This document shows, in pieces, positions 1,384 through 63,708 of a stretch of DNA of 64,000 nucleotides. The stretch is from assembly GCA_964359735.1 (NCBI GenBank), contig CAYHTZ010000005.1:3882-67881 (forward strand), written 5' to 3'. Source of the stretch: an uncultured Candidatus Saccharibacteria bacterium (GTDB taxonomy: Bacteria > Patescibacteriota > Andersenbacteria > UBA10190). Positions within the stretch are counted from its first letter, which is position 1. Each line of letters starts with the position of its first letter. The translations under genes and the position numbers were made by a program. The notes under the pieces were generated by a model. That model saw only the letters and a program-made list of their open reading frames with translations, had not been told where the DNA came from and ran no database searches.

Positions 1384-2897
1384 TAGATTTTCAGTTTGAA
1401 CTTGACCTCCGGGAATTACGCCAGAGGATATGGCAAGTTATTCCTGGCTTGCTCTCTTGGACCACGCTCATTGGGCTAACCGTGCTGGCTTTTTGGTTGC
1501 CGTTTTGGATTGCCATTTTTGTCATTGTCTATGATGTCTATATTTTGATTCGCGCTGTCTACATGTCTATTCACCTGGTGTATGCGTACAACAAACTGAA
1601 GCGCTCCTCGAGCACGCCCTGGCGGAAAAAACTGGAAGATCTGCCAACCCAGGAGGTAGATTGGCGCAATGTTCATCATTTTATTGTCTTGCCCACCTAC
1701 GATGAGGAGATGGAAGTCCTCCGGGGGTCCATACGAGCGCTCGCGGGGAGCGACTTCCCCTTATCTCAGATGCATGTGGTAGTGGGGTTTGAAGAGCGGA
1801 GTGGTGAGGACGCGCGCTCCCGGGCCGCCGCCTTGCATGAAGAATTCGACCATGTCTTCGGAACATTCATGACCACTTTTCACCCGGACGGTTCACCCGG
1901 AGAGCGGCGCGTGAAGAGTGCCAATGCCACCTGGGCTCTGCGCCGGCTGGAAGAGAAGACAGCGCCTCTGGACATTCCGGTGCGCCATATTTTGGTGAGT
2001 AACTTTGACAGCGATACGGTTGTTCACGGTAATTATTTCTCGTACCTGACACATGTTTTTATCACGCACCCTGACCGCTACCATGTGAGCTACCAGCCGA
2101 TTCCTCTCTACAATAATAATCTCTGGGATGCGCCTGCATTTTCGCGCGTGATTGCCACCGGCTCCACATTTTGGCAGCTGATTGAGTCGACTCGTCCCGA
2201 ACGTCTCGTTACCTTCTCCAGCCACTCCATGACCTTACAAGCCTTGCATGATGTTGGATATTGGCAGCGTGATATTGTCTCCGAGGACTCGCGCATCTTC
2301 TGGCAGTGCCTTTTGCGTTACAACGATCGTTACCGTACCGAGCCTCTCTACACTACCGTCTCCATGGATGCGGCGCTGACTCCCACGCTGCCTCGGACGC
2401 TCGTGAGCCAATACCGCCAACAACGGCGGTGGGCCTGGGGAATTGAGAATTTTCCGTATTTAGTCGAAGGTTTCATCAGTAACAAGAGCATCCCCTGGCG
2501 CCGCAAGGCGATGTATCTCTTCCGAACGTTGGAAGGGCACTACTCCTGGGCTACGGCGCCTATTATTGTGGCGGGCTTAGGGTGGCTGCCCATTCTTTTT
2601 GGTGGACCGGAATTTCATACCACCGTATTGTCCTACAGTTTGCCGTTTATCACGCGCACTCTTATGACCGCGGCTATGTTTGGGTTGGTGATTTCAGCGA
2701 GCATCGCCTTCATGTTGCTCCCCCAGAAGCCTGAACGTGTGAGGCCGTGGCGGTATGGCGGTATGGTGCTACAGTGGGCGCTGGTACCTGTGATGGCCAC
2801 TGTGCTTTCTGCTTTTCCGGCACTGGACGCTGAAACCCGCTTGATGCTCGGCCGGGACCTTAACTTTCACGTCATGCAAAAAACGCGCCGTGTTTGA
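1311..2897 (+). CDS. processive family-2 glycosyltransferase (cellulose/chitin/NodC-like synthase), membrane-embedded
   Basis: N-terminal TM helices; central GT-A region with acidic motifs (YDEE, SDTVVH); hallmark Q-Q-R-R-W (QxxRW) motif; C-terminal multi-TM region. Start codon is uncertain because it overlaps the upstream small ORF. Confidence 0.7.
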   Translation: MDSTAHYSNHFDFIIHHSVATQSLVDFQFELDLRELRQRIWQVIPGLLSWTTLIGLTVLAFWLPFWIAIFVIVYDVYILIRAVYMSIHLVYAYNKLKRSSSTPWRKKLEDLPTQEVDWRNVHHFIVLPTYDEEMEVLRGSIRALAGSDFPLSQMHVVVGFEERSGEDARSRAAALHEEFDHVFGTFMTTFHPDGSPGERRVKSANATWALRRLEEKTAPLDIPVRHILVSNFDSDTVVHGNYFSYLTHVFITHPDRYHVSYQPIPLYNNNLWDAPAFSRVIATGSTFWQLIESTRPERLVTFSSHSMTLQALHDVGYWQRDIVSEDSRIFWQCLLRYNDRYRTEPLYTTVSMDAALTPTLPRTLVSQYRQQRRWAWGIENFPYLVEGFISNKSIPWRRKAMYLFRTLEGHYSWATAPIIVAGLGWLPILFGGPEFHTTVLSYSLPFITRTLMTAAMFGLVISASIAFMLLPQKPERVRPWRYGGMVLQWALVPVMATVLSAFPALDAETRLMLGRDLNFHVMQKTRRV

Positions 2898-3858
2898 CCT
2901 GCGTCTCCTCTCCGCCTCTCATTTCATATTTCTGTTACTAAGTTTCGCAGTGGGCTTCGCAGTCTTGCTGCGCTGGCACACAAAATTTGCCGGCATTATT
3001 CCCGCCACCGTGGCAACGATCCTGAGCGTTGTATTCTTGGGAAATACTATTTTAAGCGTCGGGCTGCTCTTGGCCTACGCGGTCATTGTGATAGTTGGCC
3101 GGGCTGACGAAAAAGAACCGCTTTCCCCGGCTGCTCAACTTTTCTGGCAGTTACTCGTGAGCGTCATCCTGGTGGTGTGCGGTTGGAATATTCCGTATGT
3201 GAGCAACCCTCTGGGATCCGGGGTGATTGAGCTCGGCGCCTTAAGTTTCCCCCTGACCGTTGCCTGGATCATGCTCATGATGAATGCTATGAACTGGCTC
3301 GATGGCGTCGATGGCTTGGCTGCCTTAGTTGGGAGCATTGGCTTCATCACGTTAGCAGCCGTGAGCGCTTTACCAGCCACGCAAGACACAGCTACTCTCG
3401 GCTTGGCGCTCGTGGGCGCTGGGGCATTCGCAGGTTTCTTTTTACACAATGCTCCGCCGGCTCGCTTTTATTTGGGTACCGTGGGCAGCTGGTTTTTGGG
3501 AGCTTTCTTAGCACTGACGGCTGCTTTCGGCGGGGGAAAAGTAGCCACCGCTACCCTGGTGTTAGCATTGCCGGTACTCGACGCATTCTTTGTCATCGGC
3601 CAGCGGCTGCTCTCGCGGCAAAAACCGTGGCAAGGAGATAAGAAACATCTTCACTTTCGCCTCGCCTCGCTCGGGTGGAAAGTGCCGCACATTGTTCTCG
3701 CCTCAGGGGTTGTATCGGCCACCTTAGGAGTAATCGCCGTGACCGCCCAAACGAGGGAGAAGCTCTGGGTGCTCGGTATAGTTGCTTTGTTTCTCTTACT
3801 CACTATACTGAGCCTGTTATATCTAACCTATGCGGGCCGGAAAACTGCTCATCGCTAG
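2890..3858 (+). CDS. MraY/WecA-family polyprenyl-phosphate N-acetylhexosamine-1-phosphate transferase (GT4 family)
   Basis: Polytopic membrane protein carrying the family signature NAMNWLDGVDGLAA. 8-nt overlap with the upstream GT2 gene suggests co-translation as a glycan-synthesis pair. Confidence 0.7.
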   Translation: MFDLRLLSASHFIFLLLSFAVGFAVLLRWHTKFAGIIPATVATILSVVFLGNTILSVGLLLAYAVIVIVGRADEKEPLSPAAQLFWQLLVSVILVVCGWNIPYVSNPLGSGVIELGALSFPLTVAWIMLMMNAMNWLDGVDGLAALVGSIGFITLAAVSALPATQDTATLGLALVGAGAFAGFFLHNAPPARFYLGTVGSWFLGAFLALTAAFGGGKVATATLVLALPVLDAFFVIGQRLLSRQKPWQGDKKHLHFRLASLGWKVPHIVLASGVVSATLGVIAVTAQTREKLWVLGIVALFLLLTILSLLYLTYAGRKTAHR

Positions 3859-4393
3859 TTTGACAGGGGTTCTGATTATTGTGGGAGGAATATTGCTGAT
3901 CCTGAGAACCCCCTCTAGCTCCCCCTTGTCAGGGGGAGAGATTTCTTCTTCTCCTTTACCCTCCCTTGATAAGGGGAGGCTGGGAGGGGTTTCTGGAGAA
4001 ACCGTCTGCCCTGATTTCCAGGAAGGGGAAGTCACAGTGGGGGAGGTAGAACTTACCGTATCGCTAGCTAATACCCAGGCGGAGAAGACCAAAGGCCTCT
4101 CGGGCTGCAGCGAACTGCCTGAAAAAGCCGGCATGCTGTTTCCCTATAAACCCGCCAAAACCGTGACCTTTTGGATGAAAAATATGGTTATGCCCATCGA
4201 CATCGTCTGGATCCACGAAGGCCGGGTAATTGGGATCGAGCCCAATATTCCTGCTCCGACACCGGGTGTCCCCGAGAAAGAGCTGCCTCAATACGCCTCT
4301 CCGGGAAGCGTAGATGCTGTTCTCGAAATCAAAGCCGGAGGTGCTGAGGAATACGGCATTGTACAAGGCACTGAAATTTCTTGGAATAATTGA
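3830..4393 (+). CDS. DUF192 (COG1430) family protein with N-terminal signal-anchor; carries an in-frame palindromic repeat insertion
   Basis: N-terminal TM (LIASLTGVLIIVGGILLIL). C-terminal region matches DUF192 (MLFPYKPAKTVTFWMKNMVMPIDIVWI). Residues ~25-55 (SSSPLSGGEISSSPLPSLDKGRLGGVSG) are encoded by repeat copy A. Confidence 0.6.
   Translation: MRAGKLLIASLTGVLIIVGGILLILRTPSSSPLSGGEISSSPLPSLDKGRLGGVSGETVCPDFQEGEVTVGEVELTVSLANTQAEKTKGLSGCSELPEKAGMLFPYKPAKTVTFWMKNMVMPIDIVWIHEGRVIGIEPNIPAPTPGVPEKELPQYASPGSVDAVLEIKAGGAEEYGIVQGTEISWNN
3906..3993 (+). repeat. MITE/RPE-like palindromic repeat, copy A (orientation as copy D), in-frame inside CDS
   Basis: gaaccccct...cccccttgtcaggggga...ccctcccttgataaggggagg...gggaggggtttc. 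Two internal hairpins and terminal inverted repeats (GAAACCCC / GGGGTTTC) shared with copies at 40964, 58185 and 62403. Confidence 0.8.
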
Positions 4394-8349: not shown

Positions 8350-8470
8350 GAGTGCAGCGTAAATGACCCCTCCCCGGCACTCAAGTGCCGGACCTCCCCT
8401 TCGTAAGGGGCGGCAAATTTGCTCCCCCTGCCGGAGGGGGAGTCGCCGTCTGCGGCGGAAGGGGTGGGAG

Positions 8471-40290: not shown

Positions 40291-41052
40291 TTACTTCCCT
40301 CGCTCAGCAGAGTTGGCTAAGAGGCGCAGCTGTTCGTAATTTTCGCGAGGGTCGCCCTGCCCGAAGATAGATGTATTTGCACAAAGAATTGTGGCCCCGG
40401 CCCGGACATAATCAGGCACAGATTCTTTTTTCACTCCCCCATCCACCGCAATGGGAATGCCGGGATGCTTGTCGTAAAACTGTCCGATCTTGTTATAGAC
40501 AATGGGGTTAATAGGCTGGTTAGCGAATCCTGGGTTGTAGCCCATGAATAGAACGTAATCAAGTAACGTGAGTTGCTCCTCAAGGCGTTGATTTGGGCTT
40601 TCCGGGTTTACGGCTAACGCTAACTGTGATTGGGTTTTCTCCCGCAGCGTTTCGTAGACAAATTTTACGCCATTTGTTCCTTCAAATGCTTCTAAGTGAA
40701 ATACTACTCGGGCCGGATTCAAATCAATGATGTCATCAACGAAATTCCCTGGTGTGTGCACCATCATATGCAGCTCAACCTTGCTGCTCTCTGGGAGCCG
40801 CTTAAACCGTTTTATGTCGCGAAAAGTCCCATCTCCGGCAAAAACTCCATCCGTAATATCGATTTGAATGTGATCCGGCAGTTTATAAATCTTTTTCCAA
40901 TCTTCCTCAATTCCCTCCCATGTTTTGCGGAGAATGGCAGGGACAATCTCGATCGGGGGTAAAGAAATCCCTCCCAACCTCCCTTTATCAAGGGAGGGGA
41001 TTTTTTCAGCAAGTCCACTTGATAAGGGGGATTTAGGGGGTTTTGTTTTCAT
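40291..41052 (-). CDS. rpe: ribulose-phosphate 3-epimerase family protein; N-terminus encoded by repeat copy B
   Basis: IQIDITDGVF..., HLMVHTP..., VVFHLEAF motifs of the RPE (beta/alpha)8 family. The ATG at 41052 is followed immediately by the repeat, giving MKTKPPKSPLSSGLAEKIPSLDKGRLGGISLPP before the conserved IEIVPAIL start. Confidence 0.65.
   Translation of the reverse strand: MKTKPPKSPLSSGLAEKIPSLDKGRLGGISLPPIEIVPAILRKTWEGIEEDWKKIYKLPDHIQIDITDGVFAGDGTFRDIKRFKRLPESSKVELHMMVHTPGNFVDDIIDLNPARVVFHLEAFEGTNGVKFVYETLREKTQSQLALAVNPESPNQRLEEQLTLLDYVLFMGYNPGFANQPINPIVYNKIGQFYDKHPGIPIAVDGGVKKESVPDYVRAGATILCANTSIFGQGDPRENYEQLRLLANSAERGK
40964..41044 (-). repeat. MITE/RPE-like palindromic repeat, copy B (inverted orientation, most diverged)
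   Basis: gaaatccctcccaacctccctttatcaagggagggg...cacttgataagggggatttagggggtttt is the reverse complement of the family consensus. Lies in the overlap of the rpiB 3' end and the rpe 5' end. Confidence 0.7.
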
Positions 41053-41485
41053 ACTCTTCAATGGTCTTAATGCGCCGAATATGTCTTTCTTCCCCGCTGA
41101 ATGGAGTCTCAAGGAAGACTTTTAAAATCTTCTTGGCTTCTTTTTCCGAGAGCCAATCGCCGGACAGGACCACCACGTTAGCATCGTTCTTCTCTCTGGC
41201 GAGCCCGGCCGAATTCTCGTCGTGGACGGTGATGGCGCGGACACCTTTAACCTTGTTAGCGGCTATGACCATACCAGCCGCTGATCGGCAGGCAAGGATC
41301 CCAATTGCATCCCTTGTCTTGCCGACTTTTTCTGCTACCGCGAGTGCAAATGGTGGGTAATCGTCCCCTTTGTCATATGTTGTATTCCCTAAATCTTCCC
41401 AGGTGTGTCCCCACTCCACAAGCCACCTTTTGATACGCTCCTTCAGCTCAAATCCCCCATGGTCCGCTCCTAGGTAAACATGCAT
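41033..41485 (-). CDS. rpiB: ribose-5-phosphate isomerase B
   Basis: MHVYLGADHGGFELKE... with Cys/His active-site pattern; 150 aa. Confidence 0.85.
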   Translation of the reverse strand: MHVYLGADHGGFELKERIKRWLVEWGHTWEDLGNTTYDKGDDYPPFALAVAEKVGKTRDAIGILACRSAAGMVIAANKVKGVRAITVHDENSAGLAREKNDANVVVLSGDWLSEKEAKKILKVFLETPFSGEERHIRRIKTIEEYENKTP

Positions 41486-58186: not shown

Positions 58187-58261
58187 AAACCCCTCCTATC
58201 CTCCCCTTATCAAGGGAGGGACTCTTGCTTTCCCCCTGATAAGGGGGAACAAGGGGGTTTC
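58185..58261 (-). repeat. MITE/RPE-like palindromic repeat, copy C (inverted orientation), exactly filling the gap between two convergent stop codons
   Basis: gaaaacccctcctatcctccccttatcaagggagggactcttgctttccccctgataagggggaacaagggggtttc. Its reverse complement is ~90% identical to copy D. Confidence 0.85.
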
Positions 58262-62402: not shown

Positions 62403-62478
62403 GAAACCCCCTCGTTCCCCCTTATCAGGGGGAAGCAAGAGTTCCTTCCTTGATAAGGGGAGGATAGGAGGGGTTTTC
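62403..62478 (+). repeat. MITE/RPE-like palindromic repeat, copy D (reference orientation), between the ogt start codon and the htrA stop codon
   Basis: gaaaccccctcgttcccccttatcagggggaagcaagagttccttccttgataaggggaggataggaggggttttc. Terminal inverted repeats GAAACCCC/GGGGTTTC and two internal hairpins (ttccccct-tatc-agggggaa; cctycc-ttgataa-ggggagg). Confidence 0.85.
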
Positions 62479-63708
62479 TTATTCCGGTAATTCATCCAGG
62501 GTTACACTCACTTCCCGCTCCTGCCCATCATGCAAAATTTTTAGACGTACGCCTTGCCCCACCTGCTTGCGCCGAATTTGCGAGGCCAAGGAGTGCGCCT
62601 CGTCAAGCTTTACGCCGTCGATTTCCAAAATGATGTCGTTCTCCGTGAGTCCCGCCTTATCTGCCGGCGAGCCTGGTGTCACCGCCAGTTCCTGCCCCCC
62701 TTCTCCCCGCACGATCAAGGCGCCGTGGTCCACCGGGAGGTTTTCTTGTTCCTTCAGAGCTGGCGTGATTTGAATATGCCGGACTCCCAGGAAAGCGCGG
62801 GAAATTTTCTTCCCCGATTTCGCTGCTTCAATCACTGCCTGGGCTTCATTAATCGGGATGGCGAATCCAATGTTTTCTGACCCAAAGGCTACCGCTACAT
62901 TTACGGCCATTGCCTGCCCCCGTAGGTTTAAGAGAGGCCCGCCGGAGTTCCCGGGGTTAATGGCTGCGTCGGTTTGCACCACCTGCTCCAAGAGTTCCGC
63001 CTGCCCCAACTCATCCCCAGCCACGATCGAACGGGAAAGCCCTGATATCACCCCCACCGACACCGTGTTGTGCAGCTCCGCCAAGGCGTTGCCAATGGCA
63101 ATTACTGTTTGCCCTGTAATGAGTTCGTCGGAGTTGCCTATTCCTAAAAATGGGAAATTGGTGCCTTCAATTTTCACCACCGCCAAATCCAAGGATGGGT
63201 CGCGCGTCACCAGTTTAGCCTCATGCCGCTTCCCATCATTCGTAAAAACCGTGTATTGGACGTTTTCTCGATCTACAACGTGGCGGTTGGTGAGAATAAG
63301 ACCGTCAGGGGAAACCAAGAACCCTGACCCACCGCCAATTTCTTGTCGCTGTGTTCCCCGTTGCTGCAGTTGTGGTACTTGAATTTCAAATGGCAATCTT
63401 TCACCAAAGAACTCTTCAAACGGGCTGCCGAACGACCGCTCCAGCACCGGCACGTCAGCGGTAAGCACAATTGAAACAACTGCCGGGGAGGCTGTCTTGA
63501 CTGCTGCCGTTACTGCCTGCTCATGGCTTGATATCCCGGGGAGCACCGGTGCATCTTTCTGCTCGCTAATAGGCAGCTGAGCAGGCGCCGGTGCGGGGTC
63601 CTGCGTCAGGGGCTGTGTGATCCCTAGCTCGGAGCCGAAACTCAAAATCAACCATCCCCCAATTGCTCCTGCCAGCAAACTTATTAGGAAATTACGTGCC
63701 GTGTTCAT
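62479..63708 (-). CDS. htrA: HtrA/DegP family periplasmic serine protease with C-terminal PDZ domain
   Basis: Catalytic triad context (HVVD...; D..A; GNSGGPL), a PDZ domain, N-terminal TM. Start moved from 63780 to the ATG at 63708 (MNTARNF) to remove overlap with the upstream partial ORF. Confidence 0.8.
   Translation of the reverse strand: MNTARNFLISLLAGAIGGWLILSFGSELGITQPLTQDPAPAPAQLPISEQKDAPVLPGISSHEQAVTAAVKTASPAVVSIVLTADVPVLERSFGSPFEEFFGERLPFEIQVPQLQQRGTQRQEIGGGSGFLVSPDGLILTNRHVVDRENVQYTVFTNDGKRHEAKLVTRDPSLDLAVVKIEGTNFPFLGIGNSDELITGQTVIAIGNALAELHNTVSVGVISGLSRSIVAGDELGQAELLEQVVQTDAAINPGNSGGPLLNLRGQAMAVNVAVAFGSENIGFAIPINEAQAVIEAAKSGKKISRAFLGVRHIQITPALKEQENLPVDHGALIVRGEGGQELAVTPGSPADKAGLTENDIILEIDGVKLDEAHSLASQIRRKQVGQGVRLKILHDGQEREVSVTLDELPE

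Follow-up and report, generated by a model that had tools for sequence, protein, structure and literature searches.

A 64,000-nt stretch of the genome of an uncultured Candidatus Saccharibacteria bacterium (GenBank contig CAYHTZ010000005.1; hereafter the window, with positions counted from its first letter) contains a DUF192 gene that carries a small palindromic repeat inside its reading frame. The repeat is one full copy (copy 1) of a dispersed double-hairpin element, AACCCC...GGGGTT, and lies between the codons for an N-terminal membrane helix and those for the DUF192 domain. The insertion is absent from one orthologue, preserves the frame and is bordered on both sides by conserved protein features, and the element is very probably an in-frame part of the DUF192 coding sequence. 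This is a real in-frame insertion of the type known from Rickettsia palindromic elements (RPEs); the kind of event is already known, and the repeat family is unnamed.

The inserted copy, its orthologues and the host protein

We searched the window with an nhmmer profile built from 36 copies of the element, all of them from other genomes. The profile matched copy 1 over its full length (3907-3991, profile positions 1-74, E = 1.2e-18), which places the repeat at codons 26-54. An initial annotation, made from the sequence letters alone, had put it at codons ~25-55, between a transmembrane helix and the DUF192 core, and had described it as translated without a stop into a Ser/Pro/Gly-rich linker. 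The position and the stop-free frame agree with our results, and the peptide is exactly as quoted there (TPSSSPLSGGEISSSPLPSLDKGRLGGVSGE). The copy itself encodes TPSSSPLSGGEISSSPLPSLDKGRLGGV, in which Ser, Pro and Gly make up 59% of the residues, compared to 23% in the rest of the protein. Two local hairpins and the inverted ends (AACCCCCTC ... GAGGGGTT) fall within about 3905-3993. In the right arm, 29 nt agree exactly with the right-arm pattern (0 expected by chance); over the whole window this pattern matched four times and the left-arm pattern three times (expected 0.00, 100 shuffles). Folded as RNA of this strand, copy 1 forms a long imperfect hairpin (-52.4 kcal/mol, z = -4.4).

The initial annotation had proposed a comparison with DUF192 orthologues lacking the insert. 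We carried out this comparison with four orthologues (49-60% identity), all of which lie in the gene order GT4-DUF192-L21-RecR-DnaB (GT4, glycosyltransferase family 4). The N-terminal helix (LIASLTG...) and a C-x-D-F-x-E-G motif directly 3' of the insertion site are common to all four. In the window, the GT4 gene (2890..3858) lies 5' of the DUF192 gene and overlaps its start by 29 nt; the called starts in three orthologues (L118, L119 and L122) likewise overlap the end of the GT4 gene by ~26-29 nt, and an ATG at the same aligned position, overlapping the GT4 3' end, is found in four of the five genes. In L119 the site is empty: its protein reads R-K-T-C where the window protein has R, 33 further residues and C, and the gene is 31 codons (93 nt) shorter. 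L118 carries a degraded copy, which the element profile still matches weakly. Here the left arm is kept, the left hairpin is unpaired and 27 nt of the right arm (9 codons) are deleted in frame. The empty site and the decayed copy both support an in-frame insertion into the linker.

Counts given for the family here and below refer to the matches listed from a scan of one genome per species, in which 25 nt of the right arm served as the query and left halves were unconstrained. A long unusual spacer is common to copy 1 and L118 (19 of 26 nt identical) and occurs in none of the 57 other full copies. Since L118 shares the insert and the synonymous sites of the DUF192 domain are saturated between the two genes (proportion of synonymous differences, pS = 0.75), the insertion appears to be old, with the frame preserved in both lineages. 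Among the 80 DUF192 loci obtained when metagenomes were scanned for closer orthologues, identity did not exceed 56%, and no recent empty site was found. The flanks of copy 1 (TCCTGAGAA / TCTGGAGAA) are identical at 7 of 9 positions, resembling an imperfect 9-bp target-site duplication, and 84 + 9 = 93 nt would fit the 31 extra codons. In L118, a part of this apparent duplicate aligns equally to the right-hairpin loop, and no consistent duplication was seen in the 57 other copies.

The host protein is an ordinary member of the DUF192/UPF0127/COG1430 family by its Pfam match, its fold and its N-terminal signal or anchor. The domain (PF02643) was matched with 91.5 bits against a cut-off of 27. 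An AlphaFold2 model built on a 14-sequence alignment (mean predicted local distance difference test score, pLDDT, of 85) shows a helix at residues 3-25, a low-confidence coil at residues 26-60 (pLDDT ~55 across residues 31-60) and a confident beta-rich domain from strand 66-70 onward (pLDDT >90 over the DUF192 domain). Its fold matches the solved DUF192 structures 3M7A and 3PJY (PDB; E ~1e-10, target-normalised TM-score 0.75-0.82). The clear transmembrane helix read from the letters is borne out by this model and by hydropathy, the best 19-residue hydrophobic stretch being residues 7-25 (mean Kyte-Doolittle 2.78). Two cysteines, Cys60 and Cys93, do not vary among the eight closest homologues. 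An identical protein is on record as a DUF192 protein from a metagenome-assembled genome (MAG) of Patescibacteria (Candidate Phyla Radiation, CPR). Moreover, an independent 4.2-kb single-sample contig from Hainich groundwater well H51 (L001) encodes the same protein with the same repeat sequence. Because this separate contig agrees with the window, copy 1 is not an assembly artefact.

At 81 of 86 DUF192 homologous loci, the protein starts with a hydrophobic helix, from which a variable linker leads to the domain. The median linker measures 11 residues, whereas that of the window protein, with 34, is about three times as long because of the element. As linkers vary among the homologues, the element seems to have entered a part of the protein where altered length and composition are tolerated. 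In a more distant homologue (L139, metagenome contig Ga0326597_10005746, 37% identity), the linker between helix and domain has 44 residues. At positions 1579-1640 it contains, in frame (FSPPYEGGEPS), a perfect hairpin, TCTCCCCCTTACGAAGGGGGAGA, which is related to the element. This hairpin suggests that the DUF192 linker may be a recurrent safe landing site. In a further homologue (P0007), the membrane helix is preceded by an N-terminal extension, ...RKRSPLPNWGEGRGEGIPP..., that looks like another G/C-rich palindromic repeat in translation.

As a separate matter, a role of copy 1 as a terminator was not supported. The search for G+C-rich hairpins with a T-run gave a single weak site (3919-3938), with 1.4 expected in shuffles.

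Table 1. Features of the DUF192 gene, further element copies in the window, and element insertions in proteins of other genomes
Feature	Position	Strand	Details
DUF192 gene	3830..4393	+	187 codons plus stop, ATG start; open reading frame and Pfam
N-terminal membrane helix (signal anchor)	3836..3904	+	codons 3-25; AlphaFold2, Kyte-Doolittle, kept in orthologues
Element copy 1	3907..3991	+	in frame, codons 26-54; dispersed double-hairpin palindromic element
Left local hairpin of copy 1	3919..3938	+	CTCCCCCT-TGTC-AGGGGGAG
Right local hairpin of copy 1	3960..3979	+	CCTCCC-TTGATAAG-GGGAGG
Cys60 codon	4007..4009	+	invariant; 3' of insert, 5' of GTG 4037
In-frame GTG (V70)	4037..4039	+	only candidate alternative start after the repeat
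DUF192 domain	4055..4384	+	Pfam aa 76-185; predicted fold starts earlier (strand 66-70)
Element copy 2	40966..41044	-	rpiB/rpe junction
Element copy 3	58188..58261	-	whole gap between convergent genes
Element copy 4	62403..62475	+	between HtrA-like stop and MGMT-like ATG
Insert in short-chain dehydrogenase (SDR)	aa 128		domain spans aa 6-195
Insert in PurD	aa 383		within GARS_C
Insert in MnmA	aa 309		between two domains
Insert in type II/IV secretion ATPase (T2SS ATPase)	aa 469		domain spans aa 152-564
Insert in UvrA	aa 278		directly after UvrA_inter match (aa 170-268)
Insert in UvrD-type helicase	aa 188		domain spans aa 16-309

Start codon and competing explanations

Judged from the sequence, translation would begin at ATG 3830 and run through the repeat. 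Expected tryptic peptides of the resulting protein are TPSSSPLSGGEISSSPLPSLDK (residues 27-48) and LGGVSGETVCPDFQEGEVTVGEVELTVSLANTQAEK (residues 51-86). The initial annotation had argued that no ATG lies between the repeat and the conserved domain, and that the element is consequently almost certainly part of the mature protein rather than of a 5' untranslated region. The orthologue comparison, with its in-frame insertion in the linker, supports this assignment, and the next ATG is indeed M102 (4133). However, a GTG at 4037, which is in frame and has the purine-rich GGAAGGGGAAG in front of it, had been overlooked.

This GTG is one of several observations that weigh against an old insertion read through by the ribosome. 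An RNA hairpin of -52 kcal/mol lies in the path of the inferred translation. An insertion that is open and keeps the frame is expected by chance in about 1 of 5 cases, as about two thirds of the sense frames of the element are open and one length in three keeps the frame. In-frame status alone is thus weak evidence, and the argument rests on the comparison with L118. Copy 1 has, however, stayed close to the family consensus, and synonymous divergence between the window and L118 amounts to pS 0.36 for the insert against pS 0.75 for the domain (rough Fisher p = 0.003). This disagrees with simple neutral decay of an old insert and hints at gene conversion, nucleotide-level selection or re-insertion. 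Finally, neither a transposase partner (in the stretches inspected) nor a consistent target-site duplication (in 57 copies) was found.

If the GTG were the start, the insertion would have cut off the 5' end of the gene. The element would then be untranslated, the upstream frame a remnant, and the product a 118-residue protein without membrane helix. The sequence GGAAGGGGAAG resembles a ribosome-binding site at ~6 nt from the GTG, and the Pfam match begins 3' of this codon, at residue 76. Nevertheless, we regard this start as improbable because the invariant Cys60 and the predicted strand 66-70 would be lost; the FxEG motif, too, is encoded upstream of the GTG. At the GTG position, each of the four close orthologues carries an Ile codon (ATT or ATA), which is no usual start. 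The codons for the helix remain intact and are conserved in frame, the helix is kept in 81 of the 86 homologues, and L118 maintained the frame through its decayed copy despite saturated synonymous sites. The stability of the hairpin and the 1-in-5 chance of an open, frame-keeping insertion would also fit a gene that is damaged or becoming a pseudogene, in which the hairpin blocks ribosomes or draws RNase III, little or no full-length protein results and the frame is open by luck. Such a fate seems very improbable for a domain that retains every invariant residue, scores 91.5 bits and is modelled with pLDDT >90. Moreover, the insertion is common to the synonymously saturated L118 lineage, with the frame kept in both lineages, and the same element is found in uvrA, mnmA and purD of other genomes.

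The near-consensus state of the window copy could alternatively mean that it is recent, having arrived by a second insertion at the same site or by gene conversion, and is not the old insertion seen in L118. Its left arm is near-identical to copies from Gallionellaceae (L041, L056), whereas L118 shows at least 6 changes over those 33 nt, and synonymous divergence of the insert is half that of the domain. We consider a recent origin unlikely, since the insertion position is identical in the window and L118 and both share the long spacer absent from the 57 other full copies. It would alter the date of the insertion, not the in-frame location of the element. Ser/Pro/Thr-rich linkers are frequent in DUF192 homologues, and a native low-complexity linker might resemble the repeat by composition. 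This explanation is refuted by the full-length match to a profile from other genomes (E = 1e-18), the exact 29-nt right-arm match and the presence of both hairpins and the inverted ends.

We therefore return to an in-frame insertion that is part of the protein, for which we propose the following course of events. A mobile non-coding double-hairpin element of ~84-85 nt would have inserted into the tether between the membrane helix and the extracytoplasmic DUF192 domain, with a net gain of 93 nt (31 codons). The gene would have survived because this gain keeps the frame and the frame through the element is free of stops. The ribosome most likely starts at ATG 3830, unwinds the mRNA hairpin and reads the element as a disordered Ser/Pro/Gly-rich spacer, the outcome being a functional protein with a tether longer by ~31 residues. 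The insertion probably predates the split from the L118 lineage, in which the copy would then have decayed as ordinary coding sequence, and the insert is presumably near-neutral. The element itself may have spread as a mobile hairpin that is non-autonomous and might be recognised in single-stranded DNA. For the DUF192 gene, this course of events would explain the odd low-complexity linker and confirm the long annotated frame, and it warns against trimming the start downstream.

The element family and its relation to known repeats

The right-arm scan returned more than 116 matching stretches among the matches listed, with a chance number estimated at <1 for such a collection. Within the CPR, matches were found in Peribacteria, Gracilibacteria, Saccharibacteria, Nomurabacteria and Uhrbacteria. 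Further matches came from Geobacter, Desulfobacterales, Gallionella and Sideroxydans (Gallionellaceae), from Thiothrix and Thiolinea (Thiotrichales; including isolate DSM 14473 and a 1-Mb contig), and from Nitrospirota, cyanobacteria and one Vibrio isolate. The left halves are clearly homologous though they lay outside the query. A scan of plasmids gave one weak match, in a Pseudanabaena plasmid without annotation, and an arm-pattern scan of viral contigs did not find the element.

The 57 full copies measure 64-125 nt, typically 69-77 nt, compared to 85 nt for copy 1, and follow a common plan. AACCCC(C)TC and 2-4 variable bases are followed by a C-rich hairpin, whose loop is T[A/G]TC, and then by a spacer, CCTCCC-TTGATAA-GGGAGG, three variable bases and GGAGGGGTT. 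Solo right halves occur as well. The two hairpins lie on opposite strands (loops TTATCA / TGATAA). The left stem occurs in 24 distinct sequences with complementarity kept and the loop T[A/G]TC conserved; both partners change in 5 of its 8 pairs, a covariation reached in none of 500 shuffles (26-sequence alignment). We also considered a single long hairpin as the conserved structure and rejected it: the consensus structure from RNAalifold depends on numerous G-U pairs, and of its 23 pairs only 2 show changes in both partners. As the left stem covaries and the long hairpin hardly does, we take the conserved feature to be two local opposite-strand hairpins with short inverted ends.

Some copies have a more complex arrangement. 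In four loci from Geobacteraceae and Geobacter MAGs (L035, L060, L087 and L097), a second palindrome (TATGCCCCAGAGGGTAC / GTACCCTCTGGGGCATA) is nested in the left-hairpin loop, a case of one small element inserted into another. In a Peribacteria MAG (CAYIZS01; L059 1172-1592 and L007), the element occurs in tandem, as three copies with a 198-nt period inside a larger repeated unit. At L106 (6517-7415), inverted copies flank a two-gene cassette that resembles, by its open reading frame (ORF) sequences only, a toxin-antitoxin pair; the cassette contains no transposase. We examined the intervals between inverted copies at L027 and L106 as candidates for an autonomous parent element and rejected them, one being without a credible gene and the other holding this toxin-antitoxin-like pair.

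Additional in-frame copies were recognised in loci that had been fetched for other reasons, by checking long ORFs with Pfam. In SDR, PurD, MnmA, the T2SS ATPase, UvrA and UvrD, Pfam matches lie on both sides of the insert (Table 1), while in a PaaX-like regulator and a signal peptidase the copies are upstream of the sole Pfam match. Seven in-frame cases, including DUF192 and the rpe ORF of the window, use the same orientation and frame and read (S/P)-(S/P)-L-D-K-G-R-x-G-G-(V/I). A typical element copy has 2-3 of its six frames open. From these sequences, in-frame insertion appears to be a habit of this family.

According to a published summary (PMC10969869), RPEs (Ogata et al. 2000) are palindromic repeats of ~100-150 bp that lie in frame inside unrelated genes of Rickettsia and form Rickettsia-specific families. 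The element described here is likewise a small palindrome without a gene of its own, with many in-frame copies in unrelated housekeeping genes, where it would add a peptide segment and not destroy the protein, and with further copies between genes. In contrast to RPEs, compared here by description, it has two short C/G-rich hairpins, occurs in many phyla and measures 64-125 nt. Both copy 1 (85 nt) and the typical copy (69-77 nt) are shorter than the RPE size range.

Repetitive extragenic palindromic (REP) sequences and their doublets (REPINs) are mobilised by REP-associated tyrosine transposases (RAYT, TnpA-REP) and carry a GTAG or CGTC tag at the hairpin foot. REPs are typically extragenic, lineage-specific and vertically inherited. 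Our element shares with them imperfect palindromes of ~20 nt, arranged as an inverted doublet with a short spacer and also found as single units. Its covarying stems and conserved loop are as expected for recognition as a single-stranded hairpin. Because its hairpins are strand-specific, with covarying stems and a conserved loop, we suggest that single-stranded DNA hairpins may be recognised, as for REP/REPIN. However, the family crosses phyla and enters coding regions. The GTAG/CGTC tag is absent from the 57 full copies, where AACCCCC(T)C plus 2-4 variable bases stands 5' of the hairpins. No RAYT gene was found in the two inspected intervals between inverted copies; no genome-wide scan for HUH Y1 transposases was made.

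Like miniature inverted-repeat transposable elements, or MITEs (for example Correia/NEMIS, ERIC, BOX and cyanobacterial MITEs), the element is short, non-coding and multicopy and ends in terminal inverted repeats (AACCCC / GGGGTT). The 57 full copies show these repeats, the small size and the lack of coding capacity. Occasional in-frame fusions with host genes are a further likeness, as is the supply of stops, starts or ribosome-binding-like sequence to neighbours (copies 2 and 4, see below). Possible differences from MITEs are that no consistent target-site duplication was found and that, in a search that was not exhaustive, none of 116 loci (up to 8 kb) showed a parent insertion sequence with the same ends. 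By sequence, the architecture resembles that of a REP doublet (REPIN) or a very small MITE, and the family fits no described element that could be tested.

At gathering scores, Rfam 15 matched only tRNAs in the window, and at E <=5 only generic miRNA-precursor hairpin models, with scores well under their cut-offs. In the literature, we found no paper giving the hairpin sequences of the element and none that deals with CPR repeats of the palindromic or MITE type; the element is missing from the text and supplements examined of Geobacter genome papers with catalogues of multicopy sequences. We tentatively raise the possibility, though we would sooner doubt it than assert it, that this is an undescribed double-hairpin family, near-unchanged across distant phyla, that routinely enters essential genes in frame. 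Its sequence would be held near consensus by gene conversion, by a hairpin-recognising enzyme or by ongoing horizontal spread, for example through natural transformation in groundwater communities. If so, it would be an RPE-like general source of new protein linker and loop segments well beyond Rickettsia. In-frame colonisation of genes by selfish palindromes, best known from Rickettsia, is seen here in the genomes of streamlined CPR and of free-living bacteria too, with one family across phyla. Should the family spread horizontally or be kept by a dedicated enzyme, it could offer a tractable system for the movement of hairpins between distant hosts and the seeding of peptide segments. The wider family with its cross-phylum spread is a more interesting lead than the single gene.

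Further copies in the window

Three more copies lie elsewhere in the window (Table 1). Copy 2 bridges rpiB (41033..41485) and the rpe ORF (40291..41112), and its left end provides the last codons and the TAA stop of rpiB. The rpe frame is open through the entire copy (KPPKSPLSSGLAEKIPSLDKGRLGGIS), in the same orientation and frame as in the DUF192 gene. As no ATG, GTG or TTG is present between copy 2 and the Rpe domain, the rpe start should be either ATG 41052, with translation through the element, or a TTG in the right arm of copy 2. Solved Rpe homologues have 3-7 residues ahead of the point aligned to residue 34-35, counted from ATG 41052.

Copy 3 lies between the genes for an ABC ATPase (stop 58186) and an FtsX-like permease (stop 58261), and it may act as a two-way transcription barrier. 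Copy 4 has an HtrA-like gene on one side, with the stop at 62479, and on the other the ATG (62401, minus strand) of a gene for an MGMT-like DNA-binding protein. Its end reads GAGGGGGTTT, like a ribosome-binding site, ~7 nt before this ATG. For annotation, such copies matter because neighbouring genes obtain from them stop codons, potential starts and sequences that resemble ribosome-binding sites.

At 8368-8459, in the gap between the start of cysS and the end of another gene, lies a G/C element of a different type that is rich in hairpins. It includes CCTCCCCTTCGTAAGGGGCGG, CTCCCCCTGCCGGAGGGGGAG and CCGGCACTCAAGTGCCGG and matches the element profile weakly (E = 0.006).

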